From a virus, in IMG/VR virus record IMGVR_UViG_3300021962_000059: a stretch of 64,000 bases of DNA; one strand, 5' to 3'. The notes under the pieces were generated by a model. It made no database searches, had not been told where the DNA came from, and was given only the letters and a program-made list of their open reading frames with translations. Of the stretch, positions 15,340 to 32,241 are shown one piece after another. Each line of letters begins with the position of its first letter. Position 1 is the stretch's first letter. A program made the translations under genes and the position numbers.

Positions 15340-16029
15340 ATGCCAAGACGAAAAAAAGCATCACCAAATAACTCAACCTCGACACCTAAAAGTCCTGTGT
15401 CAGGCAAAGTTAGTCGGTTTGATAATCTAATACCAAACTCACCTATCGAGTTTGGTCACTATCCTATCTGGGAAAGACAGCCTTGCGAAATGTCTCAATG
15501 GTTTGAAAAATTTCAAGCTTTTTACATTCATCTTCCTGCGGGGTACAGAACATTAAATCGTGCTTTCAATGATTGCGCTACGTCGGCAGGCGAGGAGATT
15601 CCAAAGACTGAAAGTAAGCGCAATATTACCGCACCAGAACAATGGCAATTAGCTTATAAAATGTATCGATGGGAGGATCGAGCTAAGGCGTATTGGCTTA
15701 AAAAGATACAAGATCAAGAGGCTTATAGAAATGAAATCCTAAACCAAATAATAGATAAAAGCATAAAGAATGCTTTTAAAACACTCGAAAAAAGCGAGGA
15801 GATAAACAATCGTTCACTGGACGATCCTAACGGCAATTGGAGTCATAAAGACGCTGTAATTATGACTAAAGCTGTCACTGAAATAGTAGAAAAAGCATTA
15901 GGGCTTGACACTGTAGAATATGCTATTAGTATTTTACAAAAAAATGGGTTAAAAGCAATTGATCCTGACGGGAACTTAATAGGACAGCCAACAGATAAGG
16001 GTAATTCAGAAGATGAAACTATCTTATAA
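15340..16029 (+). CDS. terS: Terminase small subunit
   Basis: Basic N-terminus. The segment FEKFQAFYIHLPAGYRTLNRAF...WQLAYKMYRWEDRAKAYW resembles a common TerS HTH/W-R-A motif. It overlaps terL by 17 nt. Confidence 0.6.
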   Translation: MPRRKKASPNNSTSTPKSPVSGKVSRFDNLIPNSPIEFGHYPIWERQPCEMSQWFEKFQAFYIHLPAGYRTLNRAFNDCATSAGEEIPKTESKRNITAPEQWQLAYKMYRWEDRAKAYWLKKIQDQEAYRNEILNQIIDKSIKNAFKTLEKSEEINNRSLDDPNGNWSHKDAVIMTKAVTEIVEKALGLDTVEYAISILQKNGLKAIDPDGNLIGQPTDKGNSEDETIL

Positions 16030-18889
16030 AAATCTCTCAAAGATAAAAACAGCAACCGAAAAATATCGACTTGTTAACACCAAAGAAGAAATTGTTTTTC
16101 CTCAATTACAAGAGGGAAAACAAGCTTTATTTGGAACAATTGATGCTGATGTAATCTTCTATGGCGGAGGCGCAGGAAGTGGAAAAGCAGGACGTGCATC
16201 CAAGACAGGAAAAGCGATTCGAGATAAAATGCTTTCTATGGCGGATGCGCTTTTAGGGAAAAAACTATTATCATATAATAGTAGTTTTAATGAATCGCAA
16301 ATGAAAGATTCAAAGGTCTTGGGATGGAGTGGTCAATGGATTGACTTCTCTGATCTTAAAGTCGGGGATAAGATTATGAATCCTGATGGCCAGTATCAAG
16401 AAATCATCCAAATTCATGAACAGGGATTCAAACAATTTTATCGGGTTTCTTTTGAAGACGGTACAAGTACAGAATGCTGTGGTGATCATTTATGGTCTTT
16501 TTGGGAATCTCGCCGTAATAGCCGCAGGAAGTCTAGTAATGGGATTAATCGAATTGAGTCGAATCTGACACCTCGAGGATGGAATACTAATTACATTACA
16601 AGAGCAAGGGTTAAGGATACTAATTGGTTGATTACTGAAATTAGTAAAGGAAGACGATTTATTATTCCAATTAACGCGCCATTGCAATTTACGGCACTCA
16701 ACAGGTCTGATACTGGCAGAGCCTATTTTTATGGTTGTTTAATAGGTGATGGTTCTTATTGTAGTGATTCAATTGTCGTAACAACTTCTGATAAGTTTAT
16801 TGCTGATAAACTTGTTGATATTTTAGGGAAAGAAGCTACTGTTAAAACACGAACACCAATAAAAGATGACCGCTTAGAAGTTTTATCCGTCAATGCGACA
16901 AAAGTTCAATGGGTTAAATCTTGGATAAGCAACAATGAATATAAAGGAAAAAGAGCGTGGGAAAAAGTATTTCCCGACGGCTATTTATCAGCATCTCTTG
17001 ATTTTCGTTATGCGTTTGCTCAAGGTCTTTTTGATACAGATGGAACTGTTGGAGATAAAAAAAGAGAAGTCTCCTATTGCACAACCAGTAAAGATTTGGC
17101 TATTCAGGTAGCTTCTTTGGTTCGTTCTTTGGGTTATATGGCTAAGATTACGGAAAGACAACCAAAATATAGATACAAAGGGGAACATTTAGATGGTCGT
17201 ACGGCTTACGTTGTGGCTGTTGAGGGAAATCATCTTGAATTACTTTTTAGTTTGCCGCGTAAAGTTAAACGAGCGAAAATACTTGGACAATTCAATGGAG
17301 GATCAAGTTGGCCGGGTAAAAGAATTGTTTCTATTGAACCAACTGAAATTGATTACGCTCGTTGTATTACTGTTAGTAATCCAAATCATCTTTATTTAAC
17401 AGACGATTATATAGTTACGCATAATAGCTTCGCATTATTAGCCGATTTTGCCCGTCAAGAATTTGTCAGCAATCCTGACTATCGGGCTGTTATTTTTCGC
17501 CGGACTTACCCTGAATTTACTCAAGCGGGCGGTTTAATAGATGAAAGCCAAAAAATCTATCAGGCAATAAAAGGCAATTTTATCGAAAAACCTCCGGGGT
17601 GGCGATTTCCATCTGGATCAAAAATAGCTTTTAGGCATTTACAATACGAAAAAACTGTCTATGTTTATCAAGGGGGGCAAATTGCAAAAATAGGTTTTGA
17701 TGAATTGACTCACTTTACAGAAGAGCAGTTTTTCTATCTTCTCTCTAGAAACCGATCTGTATCAGGGATTAAACCAGCAGTTAGAGCAACTTGTAACCCT
17801 GACGCTGACTCTTGGGTAGCTAGTTTTATCTCTTGGTGGATCGACCCTAAAACTGGGTATGCTATCGAGGAAAGAGCGGGAATAGTTAAATATTTTATTA
17901 GGCAAGGGGGCGCGGTTCATTGGGCTGACAGTAAACAAGAATTAATTGATAAGTTTAGTCTTAAAGATGAACTTTTTGATATTATCCCTGATGATAAAAA
18001 AGAAAAGTTTTTATCAGATACAGATGTAAATATTACACCAGATAAACTGATCAAAAGTTTTACTTTTATTCCTGCTACAATCTTTGATAATCCAGCTTTA
18101 ATTAGAGTTAACCCTACCTATTTGGCTAACCTTTACGCTTTACATCCTATTGAGCGGGAAAGACTTCTCAGGGGTAATTGGAAGATTAAATATGAATCTG
18201 GCACTGTATTTGATCGGACTTGGTTTGAGATACTCGATAAAGTACCCGATGATTGGAGACTAATAGGTAAGGTGAGGTTTTGGGATTTAGCGGCAACTGC
18301 TAAAGAGAATGCTGAAAACTATCACTGTTATACCAGTGGCACTCTTGTTTATAAGTATCAAAGAATTAAAAATACACTGCCAGATTCAACTGAGATTAAA
18401 GAATTTGCTTATGTGATTGCTGATAATATCTGTGAGCAGAAAAAGGTCGGGGAAGTGGAGTTAATGCTCAAAAATACTGCTGAATTAGATGGTAGAACCG
18501 TAGCCGTAAGATGGGAACAGGAAGGGGGATCGAGCGGTAAATTTGTTGAAAATACGATTACTAATGTAATTAGGGAAAACCACCCGAACCATGATGTTAG
18601 AGCTATCGCACCTCAAGGGGATAAACTCACTAGGGCTTTACCCGTAGCAACGGCGGCTAGTAGAGGACAAGTCTTTATCTTGAGAGATGGGATATGGAAT
18701 ACTCGATTTTTAAATGCTTGTCAGGGTTTTGATGGCAGTAAAAAAACACCCCCGACTAACGATATTGTGGATAGCTTATCAGGGGCTTTCTATTCTCTTG
18801 AAAATGAGTTTCAGGGACATGAGGAGGTTATTAGTGCGATTGTTACTAATATTCCCATTAATCGGTTTAGGGGCGGTTTTAGTCGCTAG
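16013..18889 (+). CDS. terL: Terminase large subunit, interrupted by an intein in the Walker A P-loop
   Basis: The exteins rejoin as YGGGAGSGK|SFALLADF (Walker A). Also present: Walker B IGFDELTHF, RATCNPD, and a C-terminal nuclease region. The mature protein would be about 545 aa. Confidence 0.85.
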   Translation: MKLSYKNLSKIKTATEKYRLVNTKEEIVFPQLQEGKQALFGTIDADVIFYGGGAGSGKAGRASKTGKAIRDKMLSMADALLGKKLLSYNSSFNESQMKDSKVLGWSGQWIDFSDLKVGDKIMNPDGQYQEIIQIHEQGFKQFYRVSFEDGTSTECCGDHLWSFWESRRNSRRKSSNGINRIESNLTPRGWNTNYITRARVKDTNWLITEISKGRRFIIPINAPLQFTALNRSDTGRAYFYGCLIGDGSYCSDSIVVTTSDKFIADKLVDILGKEATVKTRTPIKDDRLEVLSVNATKVQWVKSWISNNEYKGKRAWEKVFPDGYLSASLDFRYAFAQGLFDTDGTVGDKKREVSYCTTSKDLAIQVASLVRSLGYMAKITERQPKYRYKGEHLDGRTAYVVAVEGNHLELLFSLPRKVKRAKILGQFNGGSSWPGKRIVSIEPTEIDYARCITVSNPNHLYLTDDYIVTHNSFALLADFARQEFVSNPDYRAVIFRRTYPEFTQAGGLIDESQKIYQAIKGNFIEKPPGWRFPSGSKIAFRHLQYEKTVYVYQGGQIAKIGFDELTHFTEEQFFYLLSRNRSVSGIKPAVRATCNPDADSWVASFISWWIDPKTGYAIEERAGIVKYFIRQGGAVHWADSKQELIDKFSLKDELFDIIPDDKKEKFLSDTDVNITPDKLIKSFTFIPATIFDNPALIRVNPTYLANLYALHPIERERLLRGNWKIKYESGTVFDRTWFEILDKVPDDWRLIGKVRFWDLAATAKENAENYHCYTSGTLVYKYQRIKNTLPDSTEIKEFAYVIADNICEQKKVGEVELMLKNTAELDGRTVAVRWEQEGGSSGKFVENTITNVIRENHPNHDVRAIAPQGDKLTRALPVATAASRGQVFILRDGIWNTRFLNACQGFDGSKKTPPTNDIVDSLSGAFYSLENEFQGHEEVISAIVTNIPINRFRGGFSR
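16187..17425 (+). mobile_element. Intein (413 aa) with a double-motif LAGLIDADG homing endonuclease
   Basis: Starts at Ala59, right after the GSGK lysine, and ends ...IVTHN|S. Block B reads GDHLW. LAGLIDADG motifs YGCLIGDGSY and AQGLFDTDGTV. Block F reads RCITV. Confidence 0.8.
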
Positions 18890-19067
18890 TCCATCCACAA
18901 TGCCAAACGATACCAGAGGTACTAATATCAATGCGTTCTATTTCGACTGGGTTGTCATTTTTATTGCTAAAATAACGACACCAATGCCAGATAGCCTCTG
19001 GTTCGGATTTTGATGCGATAAGAAGACTGAATGACGTGACCGAATCTTTAATTAGATACAAATCCAT
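18879..19067 (-). CDS. Doubtful small ORF (62 aa) downstream of the higA-like gene
   Basis: Converges on terL and overlaps its end by 11 nt. No motif recognised. Confidence 0.25.
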   Translation of the reverse strand: MDLYLIKDSVTSFSLLIASKSEPEAIWHWCRYFSNKNDNPVEIERIDISTSGIVWHCGWTSD

Positions 19068-19095
19068 AAATCCTCGTTAATAGTTGTAAAATATC

Positions 19096-19374
19096 CTAAT
19101 CGATTTGATTTACTAGGGATTCTCGGTAAAGTCTTTCACGCTCTATCCAGAAACGAGCAGAAGGTACGCCTAAAGCTAACTCCATTTTGTAGGCAATACG
19201 GATAGTAATTTCTGCTTTACCTTTTATGATTTGATTGATAGTCTTTTTTGGCAACCCCATTCGATTGGCAAATTCAGTTCTAGTTATTTTTCTTTCCTTT
19301 AGGATGCCAGCAAGGGTTTCTCCTGGTGGAGAAACCCAATCGGGTGTAAATCTGTTCTCAATAGTATTAGTCAT
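19096..19374 (-). CDS. higA: HigA-type XRE-family antitoxin-like HTH protein
   Basis: PPGETLAGILKERKITRTEFANRMGLPKKTINQIIKGKAEITIRIAYKMELALGVPSARFW matches the HigA/VapI antidote pattern. Confidence 0.65.
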   Translation of the reverse strand: MTNTIENRFTPDWVSPPGETLAGILKERKITRTEFANRMGLPKKTINQIIKGKAEITIRIAYKMELALGVPSARFWIERERLYRESLVNQID

Positions 19375-19377
19375 GAA

Positions 19378-19920
19378 TTAATCTTCGTTATGTAAAAAAT
19401 CGTGAACAAAATAATTGACAACTTTGATAGCCTCTTTAGTTTTTGGGATAAAATCAAGGTCTAAAGCAATAAAAACAAAAGGGTCTTTTGTTTTTATTGT
19501 ATTTTCTAGCTTGTGAAAACAAGATATATCTAATAATAAAATATCTCCTGCTTTTACTGTTAGTCTTTGAGTGTCTTTTCTGCGAACTAACAGATTATCT
19601 ATTTGTTTATTGGGAATACTAAAGTAATCTGTTTTTAGGAGTTTTTCTATTTTTTTATTATTTACTGGGGATGCGTAAAGTTCATAACGATCACTTTCAA
19701 TAACTAAAATAATTGAGTATTTTCTGTCATCATTAATGTCATCGACGTGCCATTCTACTCCTAGCGTCCCCCATAAAGCATGAGAGTAATCGGACATATC
19801 ATAGAGAGGTGTCACATAATTATGTCTTATAGGAAATTTGACAGTAAAACAAGGATTATTTGCTATTTTGCTTAGATTGTCTAGATTATGGTATTTACCT
19901 AGTTTATGCAAAGATTTCAT
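19378..19920 (-). CDS. Cupin / 2OG-Fe(II) oxygenase-like protein (180 aa)
   Basis: Has an HxD...H arrangement (EWHVDD ... VKAGDILLLDISCFHK) typical of the double-stranded beta-helix fold. It ends 3 nt before the higA-like start. Confidence 0.4.
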   Translation of the reverse strand: MKSLHKLGKYHNLDNLSKIANNPCFTVKFPIRHNYVTPLYDMSDYSHALWGTLGVEWHVDDINDDRKYSIILVIESDRYELYASPVNNKKIEKLLKTDYFSIPNKQIDNLLVRRKDTQRLTVKAGDILLLDISCFHKLENTIKTKDPFVFIALDLDFIPKTKEAIKVVNYFVHDFLHNED

Positions 19921-19938
19921 TTTTTTGTTTGGTTGAGG

Positions 19939-19968
19939 ATTACTAACTGATAACTGGTAACTGATTAC
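19939..19968 (-). repeat. Phased heptamer repeat leader
   Basis: Minus strand reads TCAGTTA CCAGTTA TCAGTTA GTAATCC ... ATG 19920. Confidence 0.85.
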
Positions 19969-20462
19969 CTACCAAATAAAAAAGATGCAGCGCCAAGTAA
20001 ATACACCCATTCTTCTTCAAGCATTAATTCCGTTTTAGAAGGATCAGCTATATCAAATAAACAAAAGTCAACTTCATCTATACGATCACCGTCGTAATAT
20101 AACTCAATATCAGTTTCTGGAAATACTGTCATAAAGCTAAATTTAAATACGGCATCTTGACGATTCTCGCAAGTTAATGTAGCTGAATGACTTGGATTTT
20201 CCCACGGAATACGATCTCTAAAGTTTTGATAGGTTACTTTTAACTTCCAGTCAATAATTGAGGGAAAATCTTCTTTAAAATGATTTTCCTTTACCCATTT
20301 AGCAATTTCGTCTATTATCCATCCTTGATCCTTTTGGATAAAATAGTGAATGCCCTCTGAATATCGAAACGGATAAATTAACTTTGTTTCGTACCAGTCC
20401 AACTTAAATTCTTGCGGTTCCGATTTTATCTTAGGAAATTGTCCTATGTCTATTATTGTCAT
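19965..20462 (-). CDS. DUF6876-like protein (165 aa), distant paralogue of 20520..20858
   Basis: YPFRYSEGIHYFIQKDQGWIIDEIAKW parallels YPFEYTDGIKYLAENGGAYWLLDAIASW in the neighbour. Confidence 0.45.
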   Translation of the reverse strand: MTIIDIGQFPKIKSEPQEFKLDWYETKLIYPFRYSEGIHYFIQKDQGWIIDEIAKWVKENHFKEDFPSIIDWKLKVTYQNFRDRIPWENPSHSATLTCENRQDAVFKFSFMTVFPETDIELYYDGDRIDEVDFCLFDIADPSKTELMLEEEWVYLLGAASFLFGR

Positions 20463-20482
20463 AATTTTTACTCCTAATTTTT

Positions 20483-20518
20483 TACTGATATCTGATAACT
20501 GATTACTGATAACTGAGA
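20483..20518 (-). repeat. Phased heptamer repeat leader
   Basis: Minus strand reads TTCTCAG TTATCAG TAATCAG TTATCAG ATATCAG TAAAAAA TTAGGAG ... ATG 20462. Confidence 0.85.
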
Positions 20519-20519
20519 A

Positions 20520-20858
20520 TTAATATTCACTAGATAGCAACAAAACACCGTCATACAACCAAAGCGTGACCTCTGGAATAGGAAAATCGGTAAATGGTAT
20601 CTGCTGAGTTACAACAAGTCCATCGTCTTGTTCGCAGCTAAGAACTGCCGAGTTATCGGCATTAACTATCAGCATCCAAAACTGAATCTGGCTTGAATCA
20701 AGTTCTTTTTGCCATGACGCAATGGCATCAAGCAACCAGTAAGCTCCTCCATTTTCTGCTAAATACTTGATGCCGTCAGTGTACTCAAATGGGTAATTTT
20801 TATTGCGGTAATAGTTTTCAGTACCCGTAAAATTGCTAAGATTTTCTAGTTTGTTCAT
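20520..20858 (-). CDS. DUF6876-like protein (112 aa)
   Basis: FTGTENYYRNKNYPFEYTDGIKYLAENGGAYWLLDAIASWQ matches my recollection of the DUF6876 signature seen on plasmids and phages. Confidence 0.5.
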   Translation of the reverse strand: MNKLENLSNFTGTENYYRNKNYPFEYTDGIKYLAENGGAYWLLDAIASWQKELDSSQIQFWMLIVNADNSAVLSCEQDDGLVVTQQIPFTDFPIPEVTLWLYDGVLLLSSEY

Positions 20859-20880
20859 GATTTTAGTCTCCTAAATAATT

Positions 20881-20932
20881 GTTAGCTGACAACTGATTAC
20901 TGATAACTGATTACCGATAACTAATAACTGCT
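20881..20932 (-). repeat. Phased heptamer repeat leader (longest, about 7 units)
   Basis: Minus strand reads CAGTTAT TAGTTAT CGGTAAT CAGTTAT CAGTAAT CAGTTGT CAGCTAA CAATTAT TTAGGAG ... ATG 20858. Confidence 0.9.
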
Positions 20933-20934
20933 AT

Positions 20935-21207
20935 TTAGTCAGGAATACCATACCCATCTTCAAACCGTCCAGCGATCTGCTCATCAATCCATTGTCTTAT
21001 TTTTGGTGACAACTCAGCCACCGTAATAATCGGAGGCAGATTTAAATCAGGATAAAACATCACATAGTATTGTTCAATGCTTTTAAACGCTGGCCAAGGC
21101 AATACATCTTCATAGATAGTTAAAACTGTCAGTATGTGTTTTGAATCAACAACAAGAGCAACTTTGCCTGTGTTTGGAGAGATGCCTTCAATACGAATAC
21201 CTTTCAT
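20935..21207 (-). CDS. Hypothetical protein (90 aa)
   Basis: Intact ORF with a heptamer leader and a TTAGGAG SD. Confidence 0.5.
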   Translation of the reverse strand: MKGIRIEGISPNTGKVALVVDSKHILTVLTIYEDVLPWPAFKSIEQYYVMFYPDLNLPPIITVAELSPKIRQWIDEQIAGRFEDGYGIPD

Positions 21208-21230
21208 TTTTTTGACTCCTAAATAATTGT

Positions 21231-21260
21231 TGGCTGATAACTGATAACTGACAACTGATA
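21231..21260 (-). repeat. Phased heptamer repeat leader
   Basis: Minus strand reads CAGTTGT CAGTTAT CAGTTAT CAGCCAA CAATTAT TTAGGAG ... ATG 21207. Confidence 0.85.
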
Positions 21261-21262
21261 TA

Positions 21263-21754
21263 TTAAAACTCTTGCCATGTCATCGGATCAGACATTGGCT
21301 CGCTGTACCGACTTAAATCCGATGGCTCGGTATCTTCATAAATGAAGTCGTCATCAGGCTCATTTGAGGGGAATAAGTAAGGTCGTCCTGCACACTCTAT
21401 CCAATCTGAGTAACCAAAAATAGGTAACTGCGAAGGAACGCTAGAGCGCACAGGTTCAAATTCGATCTCAGGTAATTCGCAACCTGGGATTTTTTTCTCG
21501 GCATCAAAGCCACGGCGTAGTTTCCCATTAAAGGTATCGAAAAACCATTCACGCCCAGTCTTCTGGCAAATGACTCGGAGGGTCGTGATTTGACCCTCTC
21601 CCCATACTTCGAGGGATACACGGTGTTTTTGACCTCGGGCGATCATAGTGAAATCACCAGAGGTAATGGGGGCTTTGACGGAAACGCGATTGGATGGTAT
21701 CATGGCTTTGACCTTTACTAGGGTTGACGGAAAGGCGATCACACTAATTTGCAC
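21263..21754 (-). CDS. Hypothetical protein (163 aa; the start may be the internal Met at 21706)
   Basis: Intact ORF downstream of a TTGACA-N18-TAATAT promoter. Confidence 0.45.
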   Translation of the reverse strand: MQISVIAFPSTLVKVKAMIPSNRVSVKAPITSGDFTMIARGQKHRVSLEVWGEGQITTLRVICQKTGREWFFDTFNGKLRRGFDAEKKIPGCELPEIEFEPVRSSVPSQLPIFGYSDWIECAGRPYLFPSNEPDDDFIYEDTEPSDLSRYSEPMSDPMTWQEF

Positions 21755-21784
21755 TTGGGAGTGGTCGTCTTTCTCTATATCTGT

Positions 21785-21814
21785 ATATTACAATCATACT
21801 TGTAATATTGTCAA
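21785..21814 (-). promoter_or_regulatory. Sigma-70-type promoter CTTGACAATATT-N-TAATAT
   Basis: -35 TTGACA (21814-21809), 18 bp spacer, -10 TAATAT (21790-21785). The same GAATTGTCAAG-type box reads TTGTCA on the plus strand, toward the cro-like gene. Confidence 0.5.
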
Positions 21815-21867
21815 GGGGTATTCCAAAAAAAGTTATAATAAATATATCGAGTGCAAAAACTAATACA

Positions 21868-22071
21868 ATGGTACTAAAAAACAGGGTCAAGGAATTTACG
21901 GAGAACAAAGGTATTACGATTTACAAGTTTGCTAAAGATGTAGGCATATCCTTTAATACGGGGTATAGATTATCAAATGATCCGACTCACTTACCCTCTA
22001 TTACTGTCTTAGAAGCAATCTGTGATTATTATAAGGTCGATCCTAACGAAATTATCTATCGCATTGATTGA
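21868..22071 (+). CDS. Cro/CI-type XRE-family HTH regulator (67 aa)
   Basis: Start moved to the internal ATG (MVLKNRVKEFTENKGITIYKFAKDVGISFNTGYRL...), giving a typical XRE HTH protein. Confidence 0.6.
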   Translation: MVLKNRVKEFTENKGITIYKFAKDVGISFNTGYRLSNDPTHLPSITVLEAICDYYKVDPNEIIYRID

Positions 22072-22091
22072 AAGTGTGATATGCTAGTAAA

Positions 22092-22164
22092 GCGGGGTGA
22101 GTGAAATGGTTTCCACATAGGCCTCATAAGCCTAAAACACTAAGTTCGACTCCTAGACCCCACA
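22092..22164 (+). tRNA. Degenerate tRNA-like gene, anticodon CAU (Met or Ile2 type)
   Basis: The cloverleaf can be drawn: acceptor GCGGGGT/ACCCCAC (C2-A71 mismatch), a D arm with GG, anticodon stem TAGGC/GCCTA with loop CTCATAA, and T arm CTAAG-TTCGACT-CCTAG (one mismatch). G replaces U at position 8, and no CCA is encoded. Confidence 0.4.
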
Positions 22165-22168
22165 CTAA

Positions 22169-22462
22169 TTAAACAAAATCCCAATTAAGAGAATTATTAA
22201 ATTCTTGTATATCAGCAAGGGCTTTTTCCCCTGATTGGGTAATCCGATAGTATCTTTTTCTAGCACCGCCTCTATCGTTAGATCGCTCGGTTCCCCATCG
22301 GGATTTAATGAGTTCTTTTTCCTCTAATTTCTGGAATACAGAGTAAAACAAGCCAATATCAAGGCTTTTACCTTTAATATCAGCTATAGATTGAATTATC
22401 TGCAATCCTGATAATTCTTTATTGTAAAGAGTCCGCAAAACAAGGATTTCTTTAGGTCTCAT
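22169..22462 (-). CDS. PadR-family transcriptional regulator
   Basis: LSGLQIIQSI...LFYSVFQKLEEKELIKSRW...GGARKRYYRITQSGEKAL is the PadR winged-helix pattern. Confidence 0.7.
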   Translation of the reverse strand: MRPKEILVLRTLYNKELSGLQIIQSIADIKGKSLDIGLFYSVFQKLEEKELIKSRWGTERSNDRGGARKRYYRITQSGEKALADIQEFNNSLNWDFV

Positions 22463-22536
22463 CTAAATATGGTATAATATTGATACGCCCCCGCGTTAAC
22501 GGGGGACTAACCACAATTACTACTACACAGTAAATC

Positions 22537-23217
22537 ATGACTGATTCTAGTTTACAGCGTTTTGATCAAGATGGTATCGAACTGATTATCAATACCGAGA
22601 CTGGCGAAAGCTTTGCTACGGTGCGAGGATATGCCCGTATGTCTGGAAAAACACACACAACAATTTTACGGCGTTTAAAGGTGGTAACACCCGATGTTTT
22701 AAATCATGCTCAAATCCAGACAGCAGGCGGGCTACAACAATCAATGCTAATACCTATTAATATTGTTACGTCCATGCTTTTAAGTGATTATAATCAGACG
22801 CCAACGCAAAAACTATTTGAGTCTTTAGTGGCAATTTACAAGCATCAAGGGTTAGATACCAGTGGTTTTAATTTACACAATTTTAACAAAGATAAATCAA
22901 GGGTTTTAAAAGTCCGTGACAGAGAAAAGCAAATACAATTGGCTTATCAATCAAAATATGGGGGAGTAATAGAACATTCTACCGCTAACGGACGAATAGA
23001 TCTACTTACCGACACTACGATTTATGAGTTTAAATCGTTTAAAAATTATAAAGATTGCTTAGGTCAGCTACTTGCTTATCATGACTGCATCCCTGAAGCT
23101 AAACTTGTAGCTGTTTTATTTGGTGTACCTAAAGCAATAGCCTTTAATAGTCCAGAATGCAATCGGATAAAATCCTTGTTAAATAAATACGGAATTACAG
23201 CCGAATTTTTACGTTAA
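22537..23217 (+). CDS. DNA-binding protein B: N-domain shared with 13063..13767, C-terminal PD-(D/E)xK nuclease-like domain
   Basis: The N-terminus SSLQRFDQDGIELIINTETGESFATVRGYARMSGKTHTTILRRL matches gene A. In the C-terminus, GRIDLLTDTTIYEFK...QLLAY fits a D...ExK nuclease core. Confidence 0.55.
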   Translation: MTDSSLQRFDQDGIELIINTETGESFATVRGYARMSGKTHTTILRRLKVVTPDVLNHAQIQTAGGLQQSMLIPINIVTSMLLSDYNQTPTQKLFESLVAIYKHQGLDTSGFNLHNFNKDKSRVLKVRDREKQIQLAYQSKYGGVIEHSTANGRIDLLTDTTIYEFKSFKNYKDCLGQLLAYHDCIPEAKLVAVLFGVPKAIAFNSPECNRIKSLLNKYGITAEFLR

Positions 23218-23639: not shown

Positions 23640-23708
23640 TAAAGTTATTTACTGCTAAAATAAAAGGTACTTGAAATTGACATCATAATTGATAACTGAT
23701 AAAACCAA

Positions 23709-23821: not shown

Positions 23822-24445
23822 GCTAGTTTGTTAGATTGTAAATAGATTGTAGATAAAGGTATTTACAATAGAATCCTTGATATATATAGATTTCAGACTT
23901 TGTTTATATTGTTATCCCTATCCCTGTGTCAGGATTTTTTGTGTTTTTATTGCTGACCTCGATTAATTAGATTGTTACTTTGTAAATAGATTGTAAATAA
24001 GGGTATTAACAAAAATAGAAAAGATGAAAGTATTGATATATATAGCTTTTATCATTTTTTTACCTCTTTGTTTATATTGCTCATAATTACCCCGTGTGTA
24101 TTTTTTTTGCTTTACTGTTGAGATTGTTGTTTTTTTTTATTGCTGACTTTGTTTGATTTCTTTGTTTTTCTCTCCTCCCTATAAAGCATCAACAGTATCT
24201 ACAAAGTCTAGAACCTAGACAGGGTAAGGATTTTGATTGTAGATAAGCTTATCTACAATCAATCACAAAAAGAACAGATTAGTGATGAAACACTTTTATT
24301 GCTGACTTTGCTGTATATCTTCTCTTTTCTTTCTTTTCCTCTATAAAGCATCGACAATATATACAAAGCCTGAAACCTATATCTAGCAAGAGTTTCCGTT
24401 GTCGATAACCTTATTTACAATCTATCTACAAACTACAATCGCTCT
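23822..24445. repeat. Right iteron array (inverted counterpart of 12572-13010)
   Basis: Contains a perfect 26 bp palindrome GATTGTAGATAAGCTTATCTACAATC at 24235-24260, multiple TTGTA[AG]ATA / TATCTACAA 9-mers and TATATATA blocks. The reverse complement of 24330-24420 aligns with 12590-12670. Confidence 0.8.
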
Positions 24446-24477
24446 GTAGTATTTGTAATATATGTAATACAGATAGA

Positions 24478-24508
24478 CAAAAAAATACCGCTCCCTCGTA
24501 GGGCGGTA
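24478..24508 (-). terminator. Minus-oriented hairpin plus U-run, upstream of a plus-strand operon
   Basis: The minus strand reads ACCGCCCTACGAGGGAGCGGTA followed by TTTTTTT. Confidence 0.4.
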
Positions 24509-24562
24509 ATCCACAGTGAATCTTCTTAAAAATTCTCTCACAGTCTTAATAGAATTGTCAAG

Positions 24563-24607
24563 GCAAAAAAATAACCGCGCTCCCGGGTGCGGTATAAAAG
24601 AGCGCGG
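24563..24607 (-). terminator. Minus-oriented hairpin CCGCGCTC-N17-GAGCGCGG plus U-run
   Basis: 8 bp GC stem. On the minus strand it is followed by TTATTTTTTT. Confidence 0.35.
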
Positions 24608-24689
24608 CGACTTAAATATGTTTTCCTTTTAAGTATATCTCAAAAAAGAAAATTTAATATACAATACAATAAACAGTACAATCTCGTTA

Positions 24690-25148
24690 ATGTCTCAAAA
24701 AGTCCTTACAGGTAATCTCTATTTAATAGGGCAGTCGTATCCTACGATTGTTAGCGAAACTGTTATTGAGATTAAGCAGGGAACGACTTGGGATGAGGAG
24801 TTTTTTATTCAAGGGGATATTACAGGGTGGAACATTAACTTTTATGTAGCCAAACAATCAGGTGAGGCTAGAATAGCTACTGGTCGGATCGAGGGGTTAC
24901 AGTTTGGAAATTTTACGGTAGAGGGAACTGAATATGAAAATTACACTTATTTTAAGTTGATTATCGATAGTAATATTACCGCTGAAATGGACATTACCCC
25001 AATTGCGATTAAAGAAATATCTCAACCAAAGGCTGGTAGGGATTACTGGCAAGCTGACTTAGAAGCTTCTAAAACAATTGCTGGTAAATTGATAGTTCAA
25101 CCTTTAGCTTTTGACCTAACTCCTGTAGTAGTGAGAGGACAAGTCTAA
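24690..25148 (+). CDS. Structural protein of the fibre/baseplate operon (152 aa)
   Basis: First gene of six tightly coupled plus-strand ORFs. Beta-rich sequence. Confidence 0.45.
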   Translation: MSQKVLTGNLYLIGQSYPTIVSETVIEIKQGTTWDEEFFIQGDITGWNINFYVAKQSGEARIATGRIEGLQFGNFTVEGTEYENYTYFKLIIDSNITAEMDITPIAIKEISQPKAGRDYWQADLEASKTIAGKLIVQPLAFDLTPVVVRGQV

Positions 25149-25618
25149 TGGCAGTCATTATTCAATCTTCTGGTGCGATAGCGGAGATAACAGGTAGTTC
25201 TCAAAAGATAATTCTTTCAGCTACTTTAGGGAATGCTGGATGGTCTCCTGTTCTTTCTTTGATTTCCGACGGCAATCGTCGGGTACTGCAAATATCTGAT
25301 TGGGTAGGCGGTTCTGGTTCGCCACCAGCTATTGGAGGATATATCGGGAATAATGGCATAGTTTTATTGATTACTGATGCAATTAATATTCGTGGCGAAA
25401 AAGGTGAGCAGGGAGAGCCAAGTCCGTCCTATCTCCACGCTCAATCTACTGCTTCTAATACTTGGTTAATTAACCATAATTTAAATGCTTATCCTCAAAT
25501 TCAATTATTTAGCTTAGGTTGGGTTAAAATTTATGCCGATGAACAGCATCTATCTTTAAATACTACCCAAGTATCTTTTTCGTATCCTACTACAGGATAC
25601 GCGATTCTTTCTTTATAG
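25148..25618 (+). CDS. Tail fibre-like protein with a short collagen-like segment
   Basis: Contains the Gly-X-Y run GEKGEQGEP. The C-terminal motif NTWLINHNLNAYPQIQLF is common in phage fibre tips. Confidence 0.5.
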   Translation: MAVIIQSSGAIAEITGSSQKIILSATLGNAGWSPVLSLISDGNRRVLQISDWVGGSGSPPAIGGYIGNNGIVLLITDAINIRGEKGEQGEPSPSYLHAQSTASNTWLINHNLNAYPQIQLFSLGWVKIYADEQHLSLNTTQVSFSYPTTGYAILSL

Positions 25619-25627
25619 AGGTAAAAT

Positions 25628-26422
25628 ATGCCTAGATTTGATAATAATCTTACTTTTGCTACTAATGCTACGGCAAAAGTCCCCAATCCACAGAGTGGAA
25701 GCGACGCTGTAAATCTTCAATTTATAGAAGATTATTTTACTGGATTAAATGAAAAGACGGCAGTTTTAGCTTCATCCTCTGGTAATATTAATTTAGCCGC
25801 TCCGGGATCGACTATTGGGGGAATAACGATGCCCCTTAATGGTCGTTTTTTAGCACCTAATCAAACAAATAACACCCAAAACGGGATTTACATTTGGAAC
25901 GGGGCTTCTGTACCGGCAACGCGAAGTTCTGATGCAAATACTTCTGCTGAGTTGAATAATGCTACTGTTTATGTTCCCGATTCTACGGGAACAACTATCG
26001 GTGCGACTTATCGACAAATTACTCGAAATCCAGTAATAGGAACCGATCCAATTATCTGGACTGTTTACGGAAATTCTGTCCCCGACGCAACAACAACTAC
26101 TCCAGGAAGAGTAACTTTAGCAACCTCGACAAATATTAATAACAATACCGATACAAGTAAAGTTGTTACAGTTGAGGCTTTGCTAGGCTCAAATGTAATT
26201 AAACGACAAGCTAAAGCAGTAATCGGAAATGGCACTGATAGCACTTTTCCAATTTCTCATACTTTGAATACTTTTGACGTTGATGTTAAAGTGCGTAGAA
26301 CTGCTGGTGATCGGGCTGACGTTTATCCGGATATTACTCGTCCGACTACTGGATCGATTACGGTCGCTTTTTCTTATGTGCCGTCTGTAGGGGAATTTAC
26401 TGTTTTATTGGAGGCTTATTAA
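25628..26422 (+). CDS. Tail fibre protein
   Basis: SDAVNLQFIEDYF and TTTPGRVTLATSTNINNNTDTSKVVTVEAL are recurrent phage tail-fibre motifs. Confidence 0.55.
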   Translation: MPRFDNNLTFATNATAKVPNPQSGSDAVNLQFIEDYFTGLNEKTAVLASSSGNINLAAPGSTIGGITMPLNGRFLAPNQTNNTQNGIYIWNGASVPATRSSDANTSAELNNATVYVPDSTGTTIGATYRQITRNPVIGTDPIIWTVYGNSVPDATTTTPGRVTLATSTNINNNTDTSKVVTVEALLGSNVIKRQAKAVIGNGTDSTFPISHTLNTFDVDVKVRRTAGDRADVYPDITRPTTGSITVAFSYVPSVGEFTVLLEAY

Positions 26423-26423
26423 T

Positions 26424-26843
26424 GTGCCAGAGAACGCAGGTTTAATTACAAAAGCGCGTGATCTTGTCGATGCTAACTACGTTGCTACTAGACAACAGTT
26501 TCAAGGAATTATTTATGAGGATGTGAATACAGGTTCTCCTAACGAGAATCTGTTAGTTTATCCTCGTAATTATACTCTACAAGCTATTTCTGTTCAAAAT
26601 AATCGAGTTGGCTCGTCAGGGTCGGGAGTAATTTCTATCCTGTTTGGTTCTGGTGCTAGTTTTGTTGCGGTTCCAGGTTTGTCTTCTCGGACTGTTACTA
26701 CTACTAATACAGTGTATAATGTTACTGGTAGTGGTCAATTGGTAACCACGTCTCAGCAGTTACAGGTACAGTTTGTTTCTGTAACTAGCGGACCGATAAA
26801 TGTCGCGATTTATTTCTATTTTAGTGAGCAGTTTGTATTATGA
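26424..26843 (+). CDS. Hypothetical structural protein (139 aa, GTG start)
   Basis: Coupled ORF within the fibre operon. Confidence 0.4.
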   Translation: MPENAGLITKARDLVDANYVATRQQFQGIIYEDVNTGSPNENLLVYPRNYTLQAISVQNNRVGSSGSGVISILFGSGASFVAVPGLSSRTVTTTNTVYNVTGSGQLVTTSQQLQVQFVSVTSGPINVAIYFYFSEQFVL

Positions 26844-27232
26844 ATAGTTTAAAAGCTTTTAATCTGTTTAAAGAAAATCCTGAGTTATTTGCTCTCTACA
26901 GTGCTGGTATAGCCAATCAAGCGAGAGTAAATATGCACCAAATATCCACTGATCCAGGGTTTCAAGTTGCATTTGCAACTGTAATCCGATATTTAATTCT
27001 TGTCGAGTTGCAATTTAACGAAACTTTTCGATCCCAATTGACAAGATTAGCTATGCAAGAAGCAACTACTGGTGAAAATCCAAGAATATTGCTTTCTTTT
27101 CTTCCTGATGGAAATTTGGCAGATGTTCCAGAAATTGACATAAAAACAGCTATTGTAAATCAATTTACCGATAACGGACCACTAAATCAATTACTGAACC
27201 GAAATGTTATTAAATTTAGTTTTAATTTATGA
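26840..27232 (+). CDS. Hypothetical protein (130 aa); possible fibre assembly factor
   Basis: Has a 4 nt overlap at each end and a helical composition. Confidence 0.4.
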   Translation: MNSLKAFNLFKENPELFALYSAGIANQARVNMHQISTDPGFQVAFATVIRYLILVELQFNETFRSQLTRLAMQEATTGENPRILLSFLPDGNLADVPEIDIKTAIVNQFTDNGPLNQLLNRNVIKFSFNL

Positions 27233-27747
27233 TAATCTTAAGGAAAAAAGCTGCGCCAGCTTCACCTTCTTTAATTCCAGGTACAATCTTTCAGTTTGTA
27301 GGATTGACAATCAATGCTGGATCAGTTGCAAACGTAACAAATGGATCTGGCTTGACTCCTGCTATTCCTGCGTTAACGGGAGTACACGAAAATTATAGTA
27401 ATACGAACGGAGTTCGAAGTGCCAATATAATAACTTCTCCTGTTAGTTTGCTATTTACTTTTCCCGCCGTTTACTGGGTAACTGGAATGAGTTTTTGGCA
27501 GGTTACAGGATTCAACAGCGATAATGGACTTCGTTCTGTTTTAATTCAGTCTTCTTTAGATAATTCGTCGTGGATTTCAGTACCCAACGGATCATTGCAG
27601 TTTCCCTTTGGAGGCGACATTCCTTCAAATCCGATTGTTATCTCTTGGCCTCCTGTTCAAGCAAGATTTATCCGATTTTTAGTAAACAGTGTTTGGGGTG
27701 GCACTAGAATCGCTCTTTCGGAAGTGCAATTTGCTGGATATTTATAG
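27229..27747 (+). CDS. F5/8 type C (discoidin)-like carbohydrate-binding protein
   Basis: MSFWQVTGFNSDNGLRSVLIQSSLDNSSW...ARFIRFLVNSVWGGTRIALSEVQFAGY matches the galactose-binding-like domain pattern. Confidence 0.55.
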   Translation: MIILRKKAAPASPSLIPGTIFQFVGLTINAGSVANVTNGSGLTPAIPALTGVHENYSNTNGVRSANIITSPVSLLFTFPAVYWVTGMSFWQVTGFNSDNGLRSVLIQSSLDNSSWISVPNGSLQFPFGGDIPSNPIVISWPPVQARFIRFLVNSVWGGTRIALSEVQFAGYL

Positions 27748-28857
27748 ATCATCCCATCCACTTAACCCAGAAGACATAATGTAGTTGGTAACAGTAGCTT
27801 CAAAAAAGTTTGATTTAGTGTGACCTTCTCCTTGAGTATCAGAGAATTTTTCCAAGTGGGAATAGGGGGATTTTTTGTATTTGTCTTCTGTAAAAATTGG
27901 ATTTAAACCAATCGCCCTTAGTCGAATATTGGCTAAATATTTTGTGTATTGATCAGTGCTATCTTCTGTAATTCCTAATATTTGATTGCCGACAATATGA
28001 TTAGTCCATTTAATTTCTTGTTCAACTGCACAATAAAATAAATCTTCTATTTCTTTTTTGCTATAAGAGAAAACATTCATTGCTTCAATAATTAACTTTT
28101 GATATAATCGGACGTGACTTAATTCGTCTCGATTGATCATCCTAAAAATATCGGCAGAACCAGGCATTAATTGTCGAGAAGCAAGATTATAAAAGAATAT
28201 AAATCCATTATAAAAATACAAACTTTCTAGCAAATAATCAGCAAGAAGGGCAATAAAATAGCTTTTAGTAGTTTGTTTGTCGATGTATTCCTGGTAAAGA
28301 TTAGCAATAAATTCACAACGATCTTTAAGAATTTTATCGGTACGCCAAAAGTCATAAACTTGACTTCTCTGATCCGATGGAATGATAGTCTCAATTAAGT
28401 ATTGGTAACTTTGATTGTGCATAGCCTCTTGAGAGATTTGTTCTGCCATACAAAGGCTAATCTCTGGGGCTGTGACGCAAGATTTTAGGTGGGGGATGTT
28501 ACAGGTCTGGACAGAATCAAGAAAAGTTAAATAAGACAAAATACCATCATAAGCACGTCTTTCGTCAAGGGTTAAGTTATTGTAGTTAGTCACATCTTGA
28601 GTGACATCTATTTTTTGCGGGATCCAGAAGTTTTCACGCATTTGTTGGTATAAACCTACCGCCCAACTATAACGAACGTCGTTTAATTGCATTAAGTTGG
28701 TAGTGTTACCAAACCAGATAGATCGGGTTTCAGTTGTATCATTTCCTGATGGATTAAAGATCGGAGAAACAGGCATTTTGCCGTTAAGATTTGCTGATGT
28801 CATAGCCTTGATTAAGTAGATTATTTTGATACTGGTTTTGTTTTTAAAGGTTCCCAT
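27742..28857 (-). CDS. nrdB: Ribonucleotide reductase class Ia beta subunit (the start may be Met at 28803)
   Basis: Di-iron ligand motifs EQISQEAMHNQSYQY and NRDELSHVRLY. Adjacent to nrdA. Confidence 0.85.
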   Translation of the reverse strand: MGTFKNKTSIKIIYLIKAMTSANLNGKMPVSPIFNPSGNDTTETRSIWFGNTTNLMQLNDVRYSWAVGLYQQMRENFWIPQKIDVTQDVTNYNNLTLDERRAYDGILSYLTFLDSVQTCNIPHLKSCVTAPEISLCMAEQISQEAMHNQSYQYLIETIIPSDQRSQVYDFWRTDKILKDRCEFIANLYQEYIDKQTTKSYFIALLADYLLESLYFYNGFIFFYNLASRQLMPGSADIFRMINRDELSHVRLYQKLIIEAMNVFSYSKKEIEDLFYCAVEQEIKWTNHIVGNQILGITEDSTDQYTKYLANIRLRAIGLNPIFTEDKYKKSPYSHLEKFSDTQGEGHTKSNFFEATVTNYIMSSGLSGWDDL

Positions 28858-29129
28858 TCTCTACATTGTACACAGGAAATAGAAGGATTTACACTACATT
28901 TTAGATTGAAATTTTTGTGAGTTTCAGGATTATAATATTTACAAGAACTAATTCGATTGCGTTCAGCTACTGAATAGTATTTGAATTGTTTAATTGTATA
29001 AATTAAATTAGTCTTAAATCTAAAAAACACTCTACACAAAACAACAGTGAAAATTAAAGCAATATAAAGTAAAAATATACTTAATGCAATAGTTGCTAAA
29101 AAGTTAATAATTATTAACACAATATTCAT
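28821..29129 (-). CDS. Small membrane protein with a C-terminal Cys cluster (102 aa)
   Basis: Hydrophobic N-terminal ~35 aa, then CKYYNP...CSVNPSISCVQC. Confidence 0.4.
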   Translation of the reverse strand: MNIVLIIINFLATIALSIFLLYIALIFTVVLCRVFFRFKTNLIYTIKQFKYYSVAERNRISSCKYYNPETHKNFNLKCSVNPSISCVQCREWEPLKTKPVSK

Positions 29130-29134
29130 AATGA

Positions 29135-29287
29135 TTATTTTCGAGTATTGATAAAATTTTTAAGACCTTCAATGAATCCAAGAGAAAAACTGATTGTATA
29201 AAACATAATAAAAAAAACAATTAGTACAAGTATTGTAAATATTACAATAGCCGCAATAGATAGAATGACAGTAGAAATAATATTCAT
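29135..29287 (-). CDS. Small membrane protein (50 aa, below the ORF-track cutoff)
   Basis: MNIISTVILSIAAIVIFTILVLIVFFIMFYTISFSLGFIEGLKNFINTRK. It fits exactly between nrdA and the next ORF. Confidence 0.4.
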   Translation of the reverse strand: MNIISTVILSIAAIVIFTILVLIVFFIMFYTISFSLGFIEGLKNFINTRK

Positions 29288-29289
29288 GG

Positions 29290-31557: not shown

Positions 31558-31624
31558 TTATTTACTCCTGGTTTTTATTTTTTTTAAAGAGGGTAAGACT
31601 TTTTTATGCCTTTTGTTGTATCTC

Positions 31625-31885: not shown

Positions 31886-31889
31886 TTAT

Positions 31890-32195: not shown

Positions 32196-32241
32196 TTTAT
32201 CTATCTCCTTTAGTCATACCTTGATACCATTTATTGCTGTA

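Follow-up and report, generated by a model that had tools for sequence, protein, structure and literature searches.

Heptamer arrays of the TAACTGA/ATCAGTT family in a Microcystis phage and their putative part in the exchange of gene cassettes

Tandem heptamer repeats are among the oldest unexplained features of cyanobacterial genomes, and the DNA of an uncultured virus analysed here (IMG/VR record IMGVR_UViG_3300021962_000059, a stretch of 64,000 nucleotides, hereafter the window) raises the question of what such repeats do in a phage. Several spacers between its minus-strand genes, including those at 19.9-21.3 kb, contain runs of CAGTTAT, which a sequence-only reading had taken for systematic operon-internal 5' leaders. 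We find that these arrays are TAACTGA/ATCAGTT tandem microsatellites, a family that fills the genome of the Microcystis host. As to their role, we give an even chance to the reading, drawn from comparison of related sequences, that they are host-type microsatellite linkers which mark, and probably mediate, the exchange of gene cassettes.

The arrays are real: with at most two mismatches the dimer CAGTTATCAGTTAT has 24 matches in the window, all on the minus (coding) strand, against a chance expectation of 0.84 and a largest count of 5 in 100 dinucleotide-preserving shuffles. Tandem Repeats Finder reports period 7 at 6229-6248, 7010-7046, 7351-7375, 7622-7639, 19944-19965, 20484-20516, 20875-20930, 21234-21260, 39809-39828 and 58542-58562, and period 21 at 63794-63845. 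Chaining of units yields 11 minus-strand arrays of at least two units versus one chance-like array on the plus strand (Table 1). The copies described earlier as weak, at 23689-23700 and 35173-35191, consist of only two degenerate units each, and the repeats at 63792-63848 are, as had been claimed, part of the reading frame upstream, whose product ends in ...ILSYQIAEVSRQLSEVSDQ*; here the number of units differs among relatives. The motif at 39809-39832 has a constant copy number in 37 relatives and coincides with no synteny break (0/27).

Table 1. Arrays, Shine-Dalgarno (SD) sites and genes of the window, with the genes in and next to the 19.9-21.3 kb block lettered A to F
Feature	Position	Strand	Remarks
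Array, 2-3 units	6229-6250	-	After stop of FGE-sulfatase C-terminal ORF, before ORF 5926-6207
Array, 5 units	7008-7046	-	Then CATCCGT CAAAAAC AAAACAC TTAGGAG and ATG of FGE-sulfatase-domain gene
Array	7351-7378	-	Then CAAAAACAAATCAC TTAGGAG and ATG of 39-aa ORF
Array	7619-7641	-	Directly 3' of stop of 372-aa ORF; no start codon after
Gene F, 92 aa	19096-19374	-	HTH_3/XRE
Gene E, 180 aa	19378-19920	-	
Array, 3 units	19939-19968	-	Between genes D and E; then TAATCCTCAACCAAACAAAAAA and ATG, without SD
Gene D, 165 aa	19965-20462	-	DUF6876 paralogue of gene C
SD of gene D, TTAGGAG	20471-20477	-	3 off heptamer register
Array, 4-5 units	20483-20518	-	Between genes C and D
Gene C, 112 aa	20520-20858	-	DUF6876; mobile cassette
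SD of gene C, TTAGGAG	20868-20874	-	In register with array; 9 nt before ATG 20858
Array, 8 units counting degenerate ones	20875-20932	-	Between genes B and C; longest in window
Gene B, 90 aa	20935-21207	-	No family match; mobile cassette
SD of gene B, TTAGGAG	21216-21222	-	In register with array; 8 nt before ATG 21207
Array	21223-21260	-	Between genes A and B; TAT CAGTTGT CAGTTAT CAGTTAT CAGCCAA CAATTAT
Gene A, 163 aa	21263-21754	-	No family match; conserved left anchor of variable block; stop 21263-21265
Weak copy, 2 units	23685-23700	-	Within iteron-rich non-coding region
Weak degenerate copy, 2 units	35173-35191	-	About 10 nt past stop codon
Fixed motif, 2-3 units	39809-39832	-	Runs into ATG of 632-aa gene
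Array, 3 units	58541-58562	-	Then AAACAAC AATGAAT TAAGGAG and ATG
21-nt super-repeat (3 x 7)	63792-63848	-	C-terminal tail of upstream ORF

The view that these are tandem heptanucleotides of the cyanobacterial type is borne out, but their link to the STRR repeats of heterocystous cyanobacteria has to be given up. Mazel et al. reportedly described STRR1-3 in 1990 as tandem heptanucleotides of heterocystous cyanobacteria; the units are CCCCAGT (STRR1), TTGGTCA and CAACAGT (STRR3). Both kinds of repeat lie in intergenic DNA of cyanobacterial type, and STRR1 and STRR3 share the CAGT core with the window arrays, but the unit sequence is another one, the host is not heterocystous, and the period-7 arrays of the window contain none of the three named units.

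Instead, CAGTTAT is the reverse complement of a rotation of TAACTGA and rotates to TCAGTTA and ATCAGTT, which places the arrays in the TAACTGA/ATCAGTT direct-repeat family. The family itself is already known from M. aeruginosa and its phage Mic1 (PMC4679880; PMC7156551). TAACTGA intergenic direct repeats were described in Beggiatoaceae, cyanobacteria and Bacteroidetes, with 265 sets in M. aeruginosa NIES-843 (MacGregor 2015, PMC4679880). The window arrays resemble them in several respects: the same heptamer on the opposite strand, head-to-tail sets of at least two units (2-8 in the window) far above chance and often interrupted by related heptamers, and a mostly intergenic position (112 of 119 unique arrays of the phage family) adjoining gene ends; in both, no RNA structure is predicted. 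CAGTTAT itself accounts for 149 of 372 units, the others being one-mismatch variants (within arrays for example CAGTAAT, CAGTTGT, CAGCTAT and TAGTTAT), and the AGT core is 94-95% conserved. Moreover, scanning genome contigs with (CAGTTAT)4 gave matches in Microcystis, Okeania, Scytonema, other Nostocales, Parabeggiatoa and Bacteroidota, which reproduces the phylogenetic spread reported by MacGregor (2015), Microcystis included. Microcystis genomes hold 559-690 trimer matches each versus 0 with a control pattern.

The host had been sought among heterocyst formers such as Nostoc and Anabaena, and this part of the earlier reading is corrected here. A genome of the genus Microcystis has a CRISPR array of 38 repeats in which at least five spacers match the window, and the RNR genes of the window are 75-84% identical to Microcystis chromosomal genes; since both point there, we take Microcystis as the host. 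In line with this, the window and the Microcystis phage MaMV-DC have a 950-bp block in common: genes E and F correspond to ORF35L/34L of MaMV-DC with 85% DNA identity, and upstream of ORF35L stands a decayed copy of the 19939-19968 leader. In the host genome the repeat is abundant on both strands; its orientation relative to genes is mixed (12 versus 12 of 29 loci), and an arrangement like that of the phage is rare (2/29). A dependence of host-array orientation on the replichore is not supported either: in G001 the 37 arrays of at least five units fall into 14 runs where 18.4 are expected (z about -1.6), and plus-strand arrays are found across the supposed gap. When cassette genes were searched for in host chromosomes, gene D had no match in two Microcystis genomes, and matches of the 'kinase' gene in cyanobacterial loci reflect only that it encodes a common FGE-sulfatase-domain protein.

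For placement and orientation we used about 170 related viral contigs with 119 unique arrays. Intergenic arrays in sense orientation make up 105 of these, a single one is antisense, six lie between divergent or convergent genes and seven are within ORFs, all in sense; counting only arrays of at least three units, 59 are sense versus 0 antisense. The array starts at most 10 nt from the upstream stop in 62 of 118 cases and ends at most 40 nt from the next ATG in 73 of 117, with a modal distance of 24-32 nt. It is usually followed by the gene's own A-rich leader of 15-25 nt with TTAGGAG, and in some cases by a promoter cassette. A pure DNA-homology role would not require the sense bias, which hints at an RNA-level or strand-specific constraint.

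The proposed modular string of stop, heptamers, spacer, TTAGGAG, 6-9 nt and ATG is present at 7008-7046, 7351-7378, 20483-20518, 20875-20932, 21223-21260, 58541-58562 and 63792-63848. It breaks down at the remaining sites: 19939-19968 lacks an SD, 39809-39832 runs straight into the ATG, 6229-6250 has only AGAGG, and 7619-7641 has an inverted-repeat promoter cassette (TTGACA ... TAAGAT) after it in place of a start codon. The placement in operon-internal spacers just 5' of strong SD sites stands as such. A scan for promoters and terminators found no enrichment in the 19.9-21.3 kb block, and therefore the arrays there are probably operon-internal. As 5' leaders they are nevertheless not obligatory: arrays also stand behind a stop codon with a promoter cassette as the next element downstream, in the window (7619-7641) as well as in L291, L292, L300, L303 and Mic1 (60168-60195), and among the orthologues of a single gene some have an array, others a promoter cassette and others neither of them, so that the absence of repeats at orthologous junctions, named beforehand as a sign of neutral slippage, is found in part.

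The 7-nt register that was said to continue through the SD holds in five of seven window leaders, with TTAGGAG or TAAGGAG in phase at 7012, 7353, 20875, 21223 and 58548; at 20488 the offset is 3 and at 63792 it is 6. The leaders in phase belong to two or three paralogous leader types. In 43 unique leaders of the phage family, SD phases 0, 1, 3, 4, 5 and 6 occur 10, 1, 12, 3, 5 and 12 times, respectively. Since phases 0, 3 and 6 are equally common among relatives, the register is no constraint, and we dropped its coupling to the SD as unsupported.

The reading as exchange linkers draws on the block at 19.9-21.3 kb, whose genes stand in permuted order in the relatives, with the homology switch point at the 3' end of the array. 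Gene C, array-flanked in all 12 relatives retrieved by protein, stands in the order A-B-C-D-E in the window, A-C-B in L223, A-C-E in L232, A-C-FGE in L233 and FGE-C in L234. The left part of the C>B, C>E and C>N68 junctions is linked to gene C; it reads TTTCAGTCATCAG[C/T]TATCAGT and is identical in L223 and L232, and the switch to the partner-specific leader falls at the array end. The 24 nt before the ATG travel with the downstream gene, as their identity is 0.49 where the downstream gene is the same and the upstream one differs, versus 0.37 where both differ. Of 53 comparisons made with relatives at the four junctions of the block, 40 show a break in collinearity, and per family, neighbour conservation amounts to 0.47-0.54 at array junctions versus 0.66-0.76 at others.

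However, breakage is not peculiar to arrays. Over all window junctions, synteny is broken at 50 of 90 array spacers (0.56) versus 106 of 218 array-free ones (0.49), which gives no support to arrays as uniquely breakage-prone junctions; a cruder count (0.63 versus 0.29) was inflated by HSPs merely stopping at the repeat. In the other plastic region, junctions with promoter cassettes are broken just as frequently as array junctions. Because array-free and promoter-cassette junctions break similarly, we regard the arrays as one of two junction elements and not as uniquely recombinogenic. Against the exchange reading stand also the end of the block shared with MaMV-DC, which lies inside the 3' end of gene D and away from the arrays, and several variable junctions in relatives that have no array, as well as the unbroken motif at 39809-39832, the small share of length differences in multiples of 7 given below, and the strict sense orientation, for which this reading does not account. 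The coincidence of breakpoints with arrays is what we observe; recombination at the arrays as the cause of the shuffling is what we infer from it. If so, the shared repeats would offer a portable stretch of homology for joining cassettes, by recombination of the phage or of the host, and joining at this point would preserve both ORFs and ribosome-binding sites. On the transcript the arrays would be merely structure-free intercistronic spacers, and slippage might alter their copy number without consequence.

Functionally, such linkers would be comparable to the PeSL (promoter-early stem-loop) cassettes of T4-type phages (Arbiol 2010, PMC2839356; Comeau 2014, PMC4122927). In either case short non-coding modules recur beside small ORFs without known function, in hyperplastic regions where relatives differ by insertion, deletion, replacement or permutation of the genes so flanked, and the broken comparisons at 19.9-21.3 kb place the arrays at just such boundaries of variable ORFs. 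In contrast to PeSL, which combines a promoter with a stem-loop terminator, the arrays are promoterless, structure-free microsatellites common to the host genome, with no promoter or terminator enrichment and fold z-scores at or above 0.

The closest parallel in a phage is Mic1, for which Yang (2020) reported the ATCAGTT repeat together with its presence in M. aeruginosa and suggested a host origin (PMC7156551); the report covers one repeat region with 20 copies, without positional, orientation or comparative analysis (PMC7156551). We find that Mic1 has the arrangement stop-(CAGTTAT)17-...TATTAGGAG-N6-ATG, with 22 of 22 dimer matches on the sense strand. Unit, sense orientation, architecture (stop, array, short spacer, TTAGGAG-like SD, ATG) and host genus are identical to those of the window, which differs in having at least 11 dispersed short arrays at cassette boundaries and in belonging to an unrelated phage family. 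A search for DNA matches between the window phage and Mic1 gave none, and the best cultured TerL relative of the window phage has 40% identity. Both this phage family and, independently of it, the Mic1-like phages have arrays in the short spacers between small accessory genes.

A role as translational leaders is possible, though in our judgement unlikely. By analogy, (CAGUUAU)n could act as an unstructured standby or S1-binding platform, or as a site for an RNA-binding protein, that raises or tunes initiation at the adjacent SD in polycistronic mRNAs. The strict sense orientation of the arrays of at least three units fits this idea, as do their position just 5' of the SD at the modal distance given above and their probably operon-internal setting, in which neither promoters nor terminators are enriched. 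In six of seven leaders the fold z-score lies between +0.4 and +2.1; since these values are positive, the leaders are predicted to be unstructured, as the sequence-only reading had supposed, and on the mRNA (CAGUUAU)n is stop-free in all frames and without self-complementarity. A translational role was also proposed for the same repeat in Beggiatoaceae (MacGregor 2015, PMC4679880). In 'Maribeggiatoa', however, the sense strand reads TAACTGA with stops in all frames, and the repeat takes the place of the RBS, its end lying about 1 nt from the start codon (PMC4679880), whereas the phage arrays, set in phage operons, read CAGTTAT in sense without stops and end 24-32 nt before the ATG with a canonical TTAGGAG between. 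They are therefore not translational leaders of the BOGUAY type, and the opposite orientation makes for a different RNA sequence. Further points against a leader role are that arrays upstream of promoter cassettes would fall outside the leader of the downstream gene, that orthologues do with an array, a promoter cassette or neither, that copy number varies from 2 to 17, that the SD phase is not conserved, and that strong canonical SDs are present anyway.

We consider it just as improbable that the arrays are a functionless by-product, that is, a slippage-prone repeat seeded by host DNA or by a replication or repair bias and kept where tolerated, namely in spacers outside coding sequence and in the orientation free of stops, so that its overlap with plastic junctions reflects available spacers only. 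The abundance of the repeat on both host strands, the variable copy number, the presence or absence of arrays at orthologous genes, the decayed copies in MaMV-DC and at 23685 and 35173, and the equal breakage of array-free plastic junctions would all agree with this, and degenerate heptamers between array and SD would explain the in-register leaders as decayed units. It leaves the near-absolute sense bias unexplained, because both orientations should be harmless outside ORFs and both are found at host loci in equal number. Conservation of the AGT core and the fact that one and the same cassette is bordered by arrays in many different contexts also speak against it. Very unlikely is a role in RNA processing or protein docking, as a single-stranded AU-rich cleavage site that uncouples cistrons or as a duplex repeat bound by a protein of the host or the phage: the RNA is U/A-rich and, by prediction, unstructured, the AGT core is conserved, the arrays lie exactly between cistrons, and AG/UUA in the unit presumably resembles the enterobacterial RNase E motif RN/WUU, but that match is only partial, the Rfam covariance models gave no match at E up to 1 across positions 19000-22000, and the arrays vary in copy number and are dispensable at orthologous junctions.

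Returning to the reading as exchange linkers, its significance lies in the fact that Microcystis phages carry the repeat systematically, in one fixed orientation, at the boundaries of shuffled accessory genes. To our knowledge, no vector is known that would account for the odd spread of the TAACTGA family over three phyla; homology patches for modular exchange would be a candidate account of both its spread and its role. A wider idea, which we regard as rather doubtful, is that CAGTTAT/TAACTGA forms a 'linker language' of Microcystis and its unrelated phages (this family, Mic1-like siphoviruses and MaMV-type myoviruses), possibly extending to the host chromosome, in which ready-to-express cassettes are swapped within arrays. 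The sense orientation might then reflect a dedicated strand-specific factor, either a repeat-binding protein or a transcription- or replication-coupled process, that makes or uses the arrays. Besides, the heptamer signature ties uncultured freshwater phages to Microcystis-type hosts.

With regard to slippage, arrays of the phage family have between 2 and 9 copies. Where flanks are strictly conserved (at least 90% identical), 2 of 21 length differences are multiples of 7, a count made noisy by crude ORF boundaries, and clean 7-nt steps between relatives are rare. A clear copy-number series is seen only at the Mic1_58 junction, with 3, 6, 10 and 17 units.

Tandem Repeats Finder reported ten period-7 arrays and one period-21 array of the CAGTTAT type in the window, and chaining gave 11 minus-strand arrays of at least two units each, next to a single plus-strand match that looks like chance. 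The dimer CAGTTATCAGTTAT, searched with up to two mismatches, matched 24 times, always on the minus strand (24/24), at a chance level of 0.84 expected from dinucleotide-preserving shuffles. The heptamer units have an AGT core that is 94-95% conserved and vary at positions 1, 5 and 6. All loci listed by the sequence-only reading are present, including two copies it had called weak, which are indeed so, and repeats it took to be translated, which form a 21-nt super-repeat from which the upstream ORF takes its tail, ...ILSYQIAEVSRQLSEVSDQ*.

Coordinates of the arrays, genes and matching regions in the window
Feature	Position	Strand	Description
FGE-sulfatase-domain gene	6255-6977	minus	called 'kinase' by PHROGs (phrog_18508)
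In-frame TAG in this gene	6564-6566	minus	at a conserved Trp position (...GDYA*YYRNS...)
Promoter cassette	7540-7615	minus	inverted repeat TTCTCCCAGA...TCTGGGAGAA around TTGACA, TAAGAT -10 box, AAACAAAACACGAGGA leader
Array	7619-7641		stop codon before, inverted-repeat promoter cassette after
Large terminase (TerL)	16013-18889	plus	958 aa
Block shared with MaMV-DC	19087-20031		950 bp
Intercistronic arrays	19800-21400	minus	by direct reading, four spacers between five small co-oriented ORFs
Genes C and D	19965-20858	minus	Pfam DUF6876
Weak copies	23689-23700, 35173-35191		
Short-match region	24001-44000		34-40-nt matches
RNR genes	27742-31557	minus	
513-aa protein	33316-34857	minus	thymidylate-synthase-like domain, PterinBD-DUF4346, weak MtrA-like N-terminus
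Array	39809-39832		fixed two-unit motif, point changes only (37 relatives)
Translated repeats	63792-63848		21-nt super-repeat

The sense-strand, stop-proximal and intergenic placement of the arrays is strict in at least three phage groups. Relatives were retrieved by protein (gene C, the 632-aa protein, the FGE-sulfatase-domain gene and the 120-aa gene), so that the selection of the resulting 167 loci is independent of the repeats. Among 119 unique family arrays, 105 occupy intergenic DNA in the sense direction of their flanking genes and a single one is antisense. Six separate divergent or convergent genes and seven lie within ORFs, the latter all in sense (7/7); arrays of at least three units are sense in 59 cases and antisense in none. 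The array start overlaps or lies within 10 nt of the upstream stop codon in 62/118 cases, this stop frequently coming from the TAG in the first unit, TAGTTAT, and the array end lies at most 40 nt upstream of the next ATG in 73/117 (mode 24-32 nt). In sense orientation, the CAGTTAT repeat is stop-free in all frames. The Microcystis phage Mic1 matches this architecture exactly, taa-(CAGTTAT)17-CAGTTAG TAACACC TATTAGGAG-N6-ATG, with 22/22 dimer matches on the sense strand. The family of the window accounts for 60 of the 102 viral contigs with (CAGTTAT)3, and others are Mic1-like or belong to a third group, [4x]...TTAGGAG...ATG.

Besides, the arrays coincide with exchange points of accessory-gene cassettes. 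Gene order is variable among relatives between the conserved gene A and the HTH gene F (A-B-C-D-E-F in the window; A-C-B'-..., A-C-E-F, A-C-FGE-... and FGE-C-...-FGE in the retrieved loci L223, L232, L233 and L234, respectively), and arrays flank gene C in 12/12 relatives. The stop-proximal part of an array stays linked to the upstream gene (L223 and L232 share an identical TTTCAGTCATCAGCTATCAGT behind gene C), the last 15-25 nt before the ATG stay linked to the downstream gene (gene B, ATTATTTAGGAGTCAAAAAA; gene E, CATCAACCAAATAAAAA), and junction printouts locate the homology switch at the 3' end of the array. For the 24 nt preceding the ATG, compared over 69 unique array junctions, identity is 49% for the same downstream and a different upstream gene versus 37% if both differ. 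Array junctions have a neighbour conservation per family of 0.47-0.54, below the 0.66-0.76 of others, and at the four junctions at 19.9-21.3 kb 40/53 comparisons with the window are non-collinear. Counted across all junctions of the window, spacers without arrays break about as frequently as those with arrays (0.49 vs 0.56), because the other plastic region (~5.5-10 kb) has promoter-cassette junctions; arrays are therefore one of two repeated junction elements. Core junctions show zero breaks. Since genes C and D are paralogues, the shuffling in the variable block involves both unrelated ORFs and members of a single small-protein family. In the block common to the window and the Microcystis phage MaMV-DC, the latter has, at 30312-30448 (L391 3836-3972), a decayed heptamer leader (CAGTTAC CAGTAAT TAGTTAG TAATCCTCGACC...) and an unannotated leftover from the gene D 3' end, which places the transfer breakpoint inside this gene.

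At even chances, we propose that the arrays would supply portable homology at which cassettes are exchanged, a working similar to that of the PeSL cassettes of T4-type phages, and that on the mRNA they would act as spacers free of structure. Compared with shuffles, seven leaders show no better folding (z +0.39 to +2.13 in six, -1.17 in one), and for the 146-nt Mic1 leader (-2.7 kcal/mol) 200/200 shuffles fold at least as well. A function as translational or standby leader appears unlikely to us. The arrays had been regarded as systematic 5' leaders, a role that is not obligatory, as some precede promoter cassettes and FGE-sulfatase orthologues carry upstream an array (2-5 units), a promoter cassette (in some relatives of the 7540-7615 type) or neither. 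The 120-aa gene has three different upstream contexts, and the composite of stop, array and promoter cassette recurs in L291, L292, L300 and L303 and downstream of Mic1_58. From the supposed register with the Shine-Dalgarno sequence (SD), five window leaders are in phase and two are not. The former comprise two to three paralogous types (CAGCYAA CAATTAT TTAGGAG; CAAAAAC AAA(A/T)CAC TTAGGAG; the 58.5-kb TAAGGAG leader) and are most simply decayed repeat units spared indels; the phase spread over 43 unique family leaders (0:10, 1:1, 3:12, 4:3, 5:5, 6:12) rules out register as a constraint. We also consider it improbable that the arrays are a neutral by-product of slippage. Copy number is variable (3, 6, 6, 10 and 17 at the Mic1_58 junction, depending on the phage) and arrays are dispensable at orthologous genes; the orientation rule is the sole observation left unexplained by every DNA-level reading. 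RNA processing or protein docking is very improbable, and an Rfam search of 19000-22000 (E up to 1) matched no family. Promoter-like and terminator-like sites, looked for at 18800-22700, were not enriched.

The heptamer itself is a known, host-type microsatellite: rotating CAGTTAT gives ATCAGTT, and its reverse complement is a rotation of TAACTGA. ATCAGTT occurs 20 times at 59,828-60,196 of the Mic1 genome, where a host origin was suggested, and in sets of 2-40 units at many sites of M. aeruginosa NIES-843 (PMC7156551). TAACTGA direct repeats are described for Beggiatoaceae, 15 cyanobacteria and 5 Bacteroidetes, with 265 sets in NIES-843 (MacGregor, PMC4679880). This is the same distribution as in our (CAGTTAT)4 scan of one genome per species, which found Microcystis, Okeania, Scytonema and other Nostocales, Parabeggiatoa, Flavobacteriia and Marinifilum. 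Two complete Microcystis genomes contain 559 and 690 CAGTTAT trimers on both strands (control pattern 0). Presumably, CAGTTAT is not among the three named STRR units, with which it has the CAGT core in common. In contrast to the phages, only 2/29 Microcystis host arrays show the leader-like arrangement; 12 follow a co-oriented stop and 12 precede a start in TAACTGA orientation. When host arrays are read in CAGTTAT direction, a gene boundary falls within 100 nt of the 5' side in 24/29 and of the 3' side in 2/29 (17 loci, L004-L113). The phage orientation corresponds to MacGregor's 'reverse' and is thus opposite to the Beggiatoa arrangement. What is new is the systematic way in which the arrays are arranged, their fixed orientation, opposite to that in Beggiatoa, and the link to modular shuffling; the repeat family, and the fact that one Microcystis phage has it, are already published (PMC4679880, PMC7156551).

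A heterocyst-forming host, as implied by the sequence-only reading, does not fit: the host is Microcystis, which is no heterocyst former. The window belongs to an uncultured Microcystis-infecting phage family of ~90 kb (relatives' contigs 78-97 kb), based on i) the MaMV-DC block (85% identity), ii) the RNR genes, which share 71-84% DNA identity with chromosomal genes in 17/17 Microcystis-genus genomes searched and, by this identity, are probably host-derived auxiliary genes, iii) many short matches (92-100% identity) in Microcystis-genus genomes, at least five of them within 2 kb of one contig (G008:C274:3500-6300, L396) in a CRISPR array with 38 copies of the 37-nt repeat GTTTCAATCCCTAGTAGGGTTTAAGATTAATTGGAAC, and iv) a TerL whose closest cultured relative (Aphanizomenon phage CL131) is only 40% identical. 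The spacer matches are direct evidence for Microcystis as host.

TerL contains a LAGLIDADG/Hom_end intein-type insert, and inteins are reported for Mic1 TerL as well. The 513-aa protein may be a nucleotide-modification enzyme, given its distant similarity, and no closer one, to phage dUMP hydroxymethylase and ThyA genes. The FGE-sulfatase gene, split by the TAG into two halves in the same frame, is either a nonsense pseudogene or a sequence variant; relatives carry multiple copies of its family (132 members in 168 loci).
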